Shown here: piece by piece, positions 6,975 to 7,444 of the stretch
Layout: every line of letters starts with the position of its first letter
Position numbering within the stretch: position 1 is the first letter of the stretch
Source of the DNA: an uncultured archaeon
GTDB lineage: Archaea > Asgardarchaeota > Jordiarchaeia > Jordiarchaeales > Jordiarchaeaceae
Assembly (NCBI GenBank): GCA_964510585.1
Contig: CAZECW010000036.1
Span: 1-7,444 of the forward strand
Direction of reading: 5' to 3'
DNA: 7,444 nucleotides
Notes under the pieces: model-generated
Told to the model about the DNA's origin: nothing
Database searches by the model: none
What the model saw: the letters and a program-made list of their open reading frames with translations, nothing else
Program-made: the position numbers and the translations under genes

Positions 6975-7289
6975 TTAGCTAATTTTAATTTTTATTGCAT
7001 GGACTGGGCATTGCTCTTCACAAGCCATACATTGTATGCAGTCCTCTTCTCTCACTGGATCCGATTTCTTTTCAGAAACTGGATGGCTTGGTGTGTCTGC
7101 CCACTCAAAAACCGACACGGGGCAAACATCGATGCAAACCCCGTCACCTTCACAAATGTCCCAGTCAACCGCCACGTTGGTTCCATGGATGCCGAGCTTT
7201 TCTGGGGGTTCAACAGGTCCCCAAACATTGTGATTTTGGTGTTTACCCACTATTCTACGATTTTCCTGAAACTCTGAATCAATAGGCAA
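6975..7289 (-). CDS. zfx: Zinc-containing dicluster ([3Fe-4S]+[4Fe-4S]) ferredoxin, 104 aa
   Basis: [36 protein letters not shown]... aligns by eye to Sulfolobus zinc ferredoxin with His/His/His/Asp ligands (KHQNH, GIHG, KSDP). [12 protein letters not shown] (CxxDxxC) and [12 protein letters not shown] cluster motifs. TTG 7289 has SD AGGAGG at 7296-7301; the extra 33 aa of the ORF track lie mostly in IS sequence. Confidence 0.92.
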
Positions 7290-7307
7290 AATATTCCTCC
7301 TGTAAAT

Positions 7308-7444
7308 TTGACACTCTCCGCGACTAAAGTCGGGAGATTCTTGCTTCTGGCTCATCGGGAGCCTTCGAAGCAATGGGTGTGCCATCACCCAGTTAACACG
7401 CCCTTCCCTTTAGGGGAACGGCGTCTATGTTGGCACCCTCATGG
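7308..7444 (-). mobile_element. Right end of an IS200/IS605-family element (tnpB-type omegaRNA/reRNA scaffold), running out of the window
   Basis: Minus strand reads GAAGCAA-GAAT-CTCCCGACTTTAGTCGCGGAGAG-TG-TCAA: GAAT guide tetranucleotide, subterminal hairpin 7316-7336 and TCAA cleavage site 7308-7311, the IS608-type right-end layout. Further stems 7341-7347/7367-7373 enclosing 7349-7363, 7374-7391 and 7398-7424. No tnpA or tnpB ORF visible in the window. Confidence 0.8.

Follow-up and report, generated by a model that had tools for sequence, protein, structure and literature searches.

A protein-free IS200/IS605 mini-transposon between the TATA-like box and the SD motif of a ferredoxin gene in an Asgard archaeon

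IS608 of Helicobacter pylori, an element of the IS200/IS605 family, inserts 3' of TTAC and has the right end TCAA. It carries both tnpA and tnpB, whereas the mini-element described here has neither gene. The two seem to have in common the TTAC target, the TCAA right end, the hairpins at both ends, and the lack of target duplication and of terminal inverted repeats. The palindrome-associated transposable elements (PATEs) of Geobacillus stearothermophilus (Meers et al. 2023, PMC10055086) are, like our element, protein-free, with both IS200/IS605 ends and subterminal hairpins. In both cases the guide-RNA scaffold is kept, TnpB is needed in trans, and many copies share their ends with autonomous elements of the same genome; PATEs "often encode omegaRNAs" that require use in trans (Meers et al., PMC10055086). 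Unlike these PATEs, the element studied here resides in an Asgard archaeal host, in around 75 copies, one of which separates the SD of a conserved housekeeping gene from its TATA box. Such a position recalls the Correia repeat-enclosed elements (CREE) of Neisseria and other MITEs (PMC2649163; PMC10969869), which are also small non-autonomous elements found upstream of genes. CREE are transcribed together with the gene, form structured RNA and can supply a promoter, and the same may apply to the element upstream of our gene, zfx. Yet CREE belong to the inverted-repeat MITEs and undergo cleavage by RNase III, while the RNA of the zfx element would be a TnpB guide scaffold.

The element is thus of a known kind, an omegaRNA-bearing PATE, and what is new is its insertion site. 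We analyzed a window of 7,444 nucleotides that corresponds to an entire contig, G000:C36 (7444 bp), in a draft genome of 217 contigs. In its last positions, 7308-7444, we probably see the right half of a 276-bp PATE/MITE copy that sits between the promoter and the SD of zfx, in a near-neutral insertion through which the gene is transcribed. The locus can be reconstructed to the base, and it appears to be a case where an insertion parted a conserved ferredoxin gene from its promoter and forced its mRNA to carry a guide-RNA scaffold as 5' UTR.

Copies, ends and relatives of the repeat

A BLAST search of positions 7308-7444 against the genome itself returned 85 HSPs, of which 75 finish at the identical ...GTGTCAA base, with flanks beyond it that are unrelated. 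This amounts to 70-80 genomic copies, approximately. The common end and the unrelated flanks of these 75 matches make the boundary at 7308 exact and exclude a chance match. A first reading of the window, made from the sequence only, had named beforehand the absence of other copies of 7308-7444 as an argument against itself; around 75 were found. On the minus strand, the repeat reads ...GGAGAGTGTCAA (also written ...CGACTTTAGTCGCGGAGAGTGTCAA) and stops at 7308. Its final four bases, TCAA (7308..7311, minus strand), were located from the ends and the alignment of the copies, and match the right-end cleavage site of IS608. Some forty contigs of the draft begin or break off 133-141 nt within the repeat. 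As the assembler was unable to cross this high-copy repeat, position 7444 is an assembly break and not a biological feature.

There are 24 copies assembled on both sides. All are around 275-280 bp long and lack an ORF in the copy alignment, and they start, after the flanking TTAC, with AAAACCTTGGCGAGAAAGCCCCCGACTTTAGTCGTGGGG... The left flank is TTAC in 22 of the 24 aligned copies, the two most diverged ones having TCAC and ATTA. The alignment of the 24 copies and the predicted fold reveal imperfect, subterminal hairpins of the same orientation at the two ends (CCCCGACTTTAGTCGTGGGG on the left, CTCCCGACTTTAGTCGCGGAG on the right) and no terminal inverted repeats. The right-end hairpin, UCUCCCGAC-UUUA-GUCG(C)GGAGA (7315..7337, minus strand), is backed by the copy alignment and the fold and kept in the tnpB-bearing relatives; it resembles the left-end hairpin and is presumed to be the structure recognized by TnpA. 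Given the TTAC left flank, the TCAA right terminus, the like-oriented hairpins, and the lack of terminal inverted repeats, we classify the repeat as a non-autonomous, protein-free IS200/IS605 element of the IS608 type (PATE/MITE).

The copies, their shared end and the homology to tnpB-bearing elements identify positions 7308..7444 (minus strand) as the final 137 nt, or right half, of an IS200/IS605 (IS608-like) mini-transposon that spans 276 bp and has no genes. This half contains the 3' part of a scaffold of the TnpB omegaRNA type and a remnant of the 3' coding end of tnpB (...AHPLL...SRGECQ). It is 100% identical over the 137 nt to two other copies in the genome. We searched for the same mini-element in five other representatives of the genus and found only partial matches to related ends. 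In its present form, the element thus occurs in one species among the six representatives of the genus.

The genome has five TnpB-domain matches and four Y1-transposase matches. The matches to PF01797 on contigs C7, C169, and C162 have the motif DHLHLF (HUH motif intact) and the catalytic Y. A multi-copy tnpA-tnpB element lies in pieces at the ends of contigs: its left end, with tnpA and the N-terminal portion of tnpB, occurs on C169, C7, and C162, while its right end, along with the 3' end of tnpB, occurs on C8, C54, C152, and C45. At the left end, this larger element and the mini-element share 90% identity over the first 60 nt of the latter; at the right end, they share 74-75% over its last 124 nt. 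Presumably, the mini-element is mobilized by a Y1 TnpA supplied in trans.

Several observations indicate that the mini-element has kept the scaffold of the TnpB guide RNA. Its right end is homologous to that of the larger element, and two stems keep their pairing in this alignment by two-sided changes (ACGCC/GGCGU vs GUGCC/GGCAC and UUGCUU/AAGCAA vs UUGGA/UCCAA). The tnpB-derived frame that remains in the window (VMAHPLL...SRGECQ) matches the C-terminal end of TnpB from contig C81, and the fold of the whole element gives a z-score of -6.0 relative to shuffled sequences. A scan of the whole window, which has only the last 137 nt of the scaffold, against Rfam 15 at E-values up to 1 revealed no family.

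The tnpB genes themselves vary in state. On C81, a 557-aa open frame (G000:C81:5075-6787; L039:211-1884, minus) joins a degenerate part of a Y1 transposase to TnpB. By eye, the position of its HUH motif reads GYIQLF, and in the TnpB part the expected context of the RuvC-II glutamate reads IVLGRL. This frame stays open until the element ends (…SRGECQ) and finds its stop codon in the flanking DNA. The tnpB of one full-length copy (G000:C7:11-611) shifts frame near C7:349, with tblastn matches in two frames. At least one copy of tnpB is probably broken.

The ferredoxin gene and its displaced promoter region

The gene downstream of the element, zfx (6975..7289, minus strand, stop included), encodes a putative zinc-containing 2x[Fe-S] ferredoxin of 104 aa and starts with TTG, as judged from Pfam, structures and orthologues. 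Its product matches the Pfam Fer4 families and the zinc ferredoxins of Sulfolobus 1xer (E 2e-41) and 2vkr (E 1e-40), which align over residues 3-102; residue 3 aligns with residue 2 of both structures. At the start, the same codon is TTG in three sister species and ATG in a fourth, with AGGAGG 6-7 nt upstream in all. The codon and SD of the sister species, together with the structural alignment from residue 3, show that the TTG start is right. These matches characterize the product as a ferredoxin of the zinc type, with an N-terminal extension and a 2x[Fe-S] core. It is the sole full-length gene of the zfx type in the genome, which has six other ferredoxin-like matches. Tail to tail with zfx are the genes of a 2-oxoacid:ferredoxin oxidoreductase (3897-6792, plus strand), a 645-aa alpha/gamma fusion and a 322-aa beta subunit. 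In view of this arrangement, zfx is probably their electron acceptor.

The longest ORF at the locus is not zfx. It spans 6975-7388 (minus strand, 137 aa), starts with GTG at 7388, and has the frame of the tnpB remnant fused in frame to zfx; an internal ATG around 7356 is preceded by GAAGG. This ORF is a chimera between a transposon remnant and the ferredoxin, and a gene caller could report it as a falsely extended ferredoxin.

On the minus strand, the last base of the element at 7308 is followed by ATTTAC (7307-7302), by AGGAGG (7296..7301), the SD motif of zfx, kept in all five species of the genus compared, by AATATT (7295-7290), and by the TTG start (7289-7287). The element ends 6 nt from the SD and 18 nt from the start codon. 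These coordinates and motifs, TCAA included, are those of the sequence-only reading, which had also drawn from the junction a predicted guide of 16 nt containing the whole SD. This guide, AUUUACAGGAGGAAUA / ATTTACAGGAGGAATA (7292..7307, minus strand), was read correctly and is simply the right flank of the element. In the reconstructed empty site (see below) it follows TTAC (TAM) directly. It is therefore the target expected for the homing of TnpB (PMC10055086), and the presence of the SD in it is incidental. As the guide of every copy is its flank, an SD within the guide is a trivial outcome of the landing site. By the TTAC rule of left ends, the flank also holds a further potential target site for the element family, a second TTAC (7302..7305, minus strand).

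The other half of the copy was found on another contig. Positions 1-134 of C172 (G000:C172:1-134) are the left end at 99% identity, covering element bases 134-1 in the required orientation. The next part of this contig, C172:143-1614, has 84-85% nucleotide identity to the 1.5-kb region that precedes zfx in the sister species G003, G004, and G001. The copy so reconstructed comprises 134 nt on C172, around 5 unassembled nt, and 137 nt on C36, for a length of 276 bp; we infer the join of the two contigs from synteny and from the matching half-elements, no single read or contig spanning it. In this order, the locus consists of a co-oriented metallo-beta-lactamase/rhodanese gene, 128 nt, ...GAAATATTAACAATCAATTCTTTTTTTAC, the element, and ATTTACAGGAGGAATATT-TTG.

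As the search of the other genus representatives gave only partial matches to related ends, the empty site was taken from orthologous loci. Once the element is removed, the sequence aligns without gaps to the ...GGATATTAATAGCAATTCTCTCTAAAATCCATAGGAGGGATATTT-TTG of the three relatives, with TTAC at the joint (TTAC|ATTTAC...). The insertion thus took place 3' of TTAC, without target duplication and in the same orientation as zfx. A TATA-like box, ATATTAAYA, is kept in four species; in the empty site, it precedes the TTG by 44 nt. The element is placed between this conserved box and the SD of zfx.

These results support the sequence-only reading of the region in part. Insertion without target duplication is what the gap-free empty site displays, the empty allele that it suggested looking for in relatives exists as the orthologous site in G003, G004, and G001, and the left end and TAM that it wished to see checked lie on C172:1-134 and at the joint. 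Its attribution to IS605 stands for the right end, which is of the IS200/IS605 family and has a scaffold of the omegaRNA type, but not for a full IS605 with tnpB. In particular, there is no tnpB-bearing IS605 past position 7444, which is the end of the contig: the left half lies 5 nt away on C172, in a gene-less element of 276 bp, and tnpB was found upstream of the right end of the mini-element in none of the assembled copies. For annotation, this means that the end of the contig conceals a simple 276-bp insertion and not a tnpB locus.

Hot-spring metagenome contigs from three runs (three studies, 2017-2019) cross the junction between zfx and the element (6600-7333). None of the contigs of these three runs had the empty site; such contigs inform on presence, not on absence.

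Predicted transcription and translation across the element

A motif scan of the reconstructed locus found AT-rich 8-mers upstream of the TTG in four places: the native TATA-like box and its surroundings (about -337 to -298 from the TTG), a site in the interior of the element (-243 to -236), the TATA box that belongs to the element itself, GTATATAAATAG (positions 72-79 of the element, -223 to -217), and a box born at the junction, AAATTTAC (about -22 to -20). There is no AT-rich box between element positions 85 and 272, and no run of five or more T between either candidate promoter and the TTG. The internal TATA-like box of the element is kept in most copies and points toward zfx. The TATA box of archaea is centered around 26 nt before the transcription start site. 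We therefore discarded the junction-born AAATTTAC as the promoter of zfx, since the start would fall inside the coding sequence.

The gap of 18 nt leaves no room for an archaeal promoter between the element and the gene, as had already been noticed from the sequence, so that transcription of zfx must start upstream of the element or inside it and cross it. Judging from motif and geometry, only the displaced native promoter and the TATA box of the element would be able to drive the gene. Hence, the idea of the first reading that the zfx mRNA arises by read-through from or across the element seems well founded on the promoter-like boxes available.

In the scenario that we favor, the element transposed into a single-stranded target ...TTTTTTTAC|ATTTACAGGAGG..., presumably by means of a TnpA acting in trans, and would have landed 18 nt before the start codon of zfx, between the TATA-like box and the SD and co-oriented with the gene. 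The displaced native promoter would now start transcription in the first bases of the left end of the element. The box GTATATAAATAG, which would normally drive the guide-RNA scaffold, would start it near element base 100-106 and yield a scaffold of around 170 nt. Either transcript would be a chimera of scaffold, "guide" (the leader of zfx with its SD), and zfx coding sequence. We folded both predicted read-through RNAs at 37 and 65 C and obtained a probability of 0.5-0.9 that the SD is unpaired, compared with 0.63-1.0 for the short native leader. Occlusion of the SD by the scaffold was rejected, as the SD is predicted to stay largely unpaired. Since the scaffold would fold on itself and leave the SD free, the ferredoxin should still be translatable. 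Most likely, the insertion is a tolerated, near-neutral event and not a regulatory device.

Searching for transcripts, we found that one metatranscriptome (X9, microbial mat, share 0.06) gives no cover on zfx; its only match is another copy, or a relative, of the element. This match, a contig of 217 nt aligned to window positions 7307-7442 with 3 differences and 1 gap, is a close relative of the mini-element with other flanks. This is a hint at transcription of some copy or relative, or at carry-over of DNA into the library.

Other possible consequences of the insertion

The gene could be poorly expressed or silent. We regard it as improbable, although somewhat less so than the readings discussed below, that the insertion crippled zfx by uncoupling its promoter and giving it a long structured 5' UTR, and that the gene is heading for loss while other ferredoxins replace it. 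The native TATA box is now 276 nt more distant, and the genome has the six other ferredoxin-like matches. The copy is also young, being 100% identical over 137 nt to two others, so that an intact zfx ORF says little on this matter. Yet none of the other matches is a full-length gene of the zfx type, and zfx remains tail to tail with the genes of the oxidoreductase. The junction was present in runs of three studies from 2017 to 2019, with no contig of the empty allele seen. The prediction of a free SD and of two promoters in the orientation of zfx also argues against a crippled gene and in favor of zfx being transcribed through the element.

The sequence-only reading had proposed that a single precursor serves as omegaRNA and zfx mRNA, and that loading of TnpB or trimming of the guide at its 3' end removes or masks the SD, which would tie the output of ferredoxin to the assembly of the transposon RNP. 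We find this quite unlikely. The co-oriented scaffold does stop 6 nt before the SD, so that a guide of 16-20 nt would include the SD and extend as far as the start codon; the scaffold is kept, with compensatory pairs relative to tnpB-bearing elements; the genome has tnpB genes; and read-through is the one evident route to expression of zfx. Against this, the element lacks tnpB, and the bound share of the transcripts would hinge on TnpB supplied in trans by a diverged family, with only 75% identity at the right end. TnpB was reported to cut its RNA on the 5' side only, leaving a 3' flank of 59 nt intact, while a role of host RNases at the 3' end was only a suggestion (PMC10278001). A 3' trimming that takes away the SD is not a known activity of TnpB.

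The genomic distribution of the copies gives no sign of selection for such a coupling. Right ends lie within 100 nt of the start of a co-oriented gene in around 13 of 69 cases and left ends beside a divergent start in 12 of 79, counts that rely on crude ORF calls and make for a weak test. Copies close to promoters are common, and genome-wide they have no preferred orientation.

The suggestion that the guide might bind other translation starts found no counterpart either, as regards DNA targeting. With TTAC in front, the 16-nt guide has 0 genomic sites when up to 3 mismatches are allowed, and its 12-nt seed has none with up to 1 mismatch. When the TAM is left aside, the guide matches 8 other genomic sites at 2 mismatches. 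We also looked for the 3' end of the 16S rRNA for pairing with the anti-SD, and found no clear 16S end.

A related version of the coupling seems to us slightly less probable still. Here the zfx mRNA would be a natural omegaRNA-mRNA chimera with its own RBS as guide, and TnpB acting in trans would occlude the SD or, together with host RNases, sever the leader from the coding sequence. Were this true, translation of the ferredoxin would fall when the transposon nuclease is abundant, as in an accidental translational switch borne by a transposon. Whatever the outcome, the locus offers a natural substrate for asking whether omegaRNA scaffolds in 5' UTRs affect downstream genes; if they have no effect, this is another tolerated promoter-proximal insertion.

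Finally, co-option of the element as a promoter and 5'-UTR module giving stronger or differently regulated expression of zfx, as for Correia elements in Neisseria, has equally slim chances: although the internal TATA-like box is kept in most copies and aimed at zfx, and MITEs giving promoters or processing sites to adjacent genes are documented (PMC2649163, PMC10969869), the copies near gene starts have no orientation bias, the same element also lies inside genes and beside gene tails, and its occurrence in this form in one species only of six genus representatives leaves little time for co-option.

Two further features of the window are worth describing. Just past the stop codon of zfx, a run of nine T is followed by a run of nine G (6939-6956, minus strand), and the T run is a plausible archaeal terminator. 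In contigs from two other runs, there are deletions of 4 nt and 2 nt at these homopolymers, whose length is either polymorphic or prone to error. Further away, positions 1011-3011 (minus strand) encode a protein of 666 aa with an N-terminal SAM-methyltransferase and a C-terminal ATP-grasp of the D-Ala-D-Ala-ligase type, an unusual fusion.
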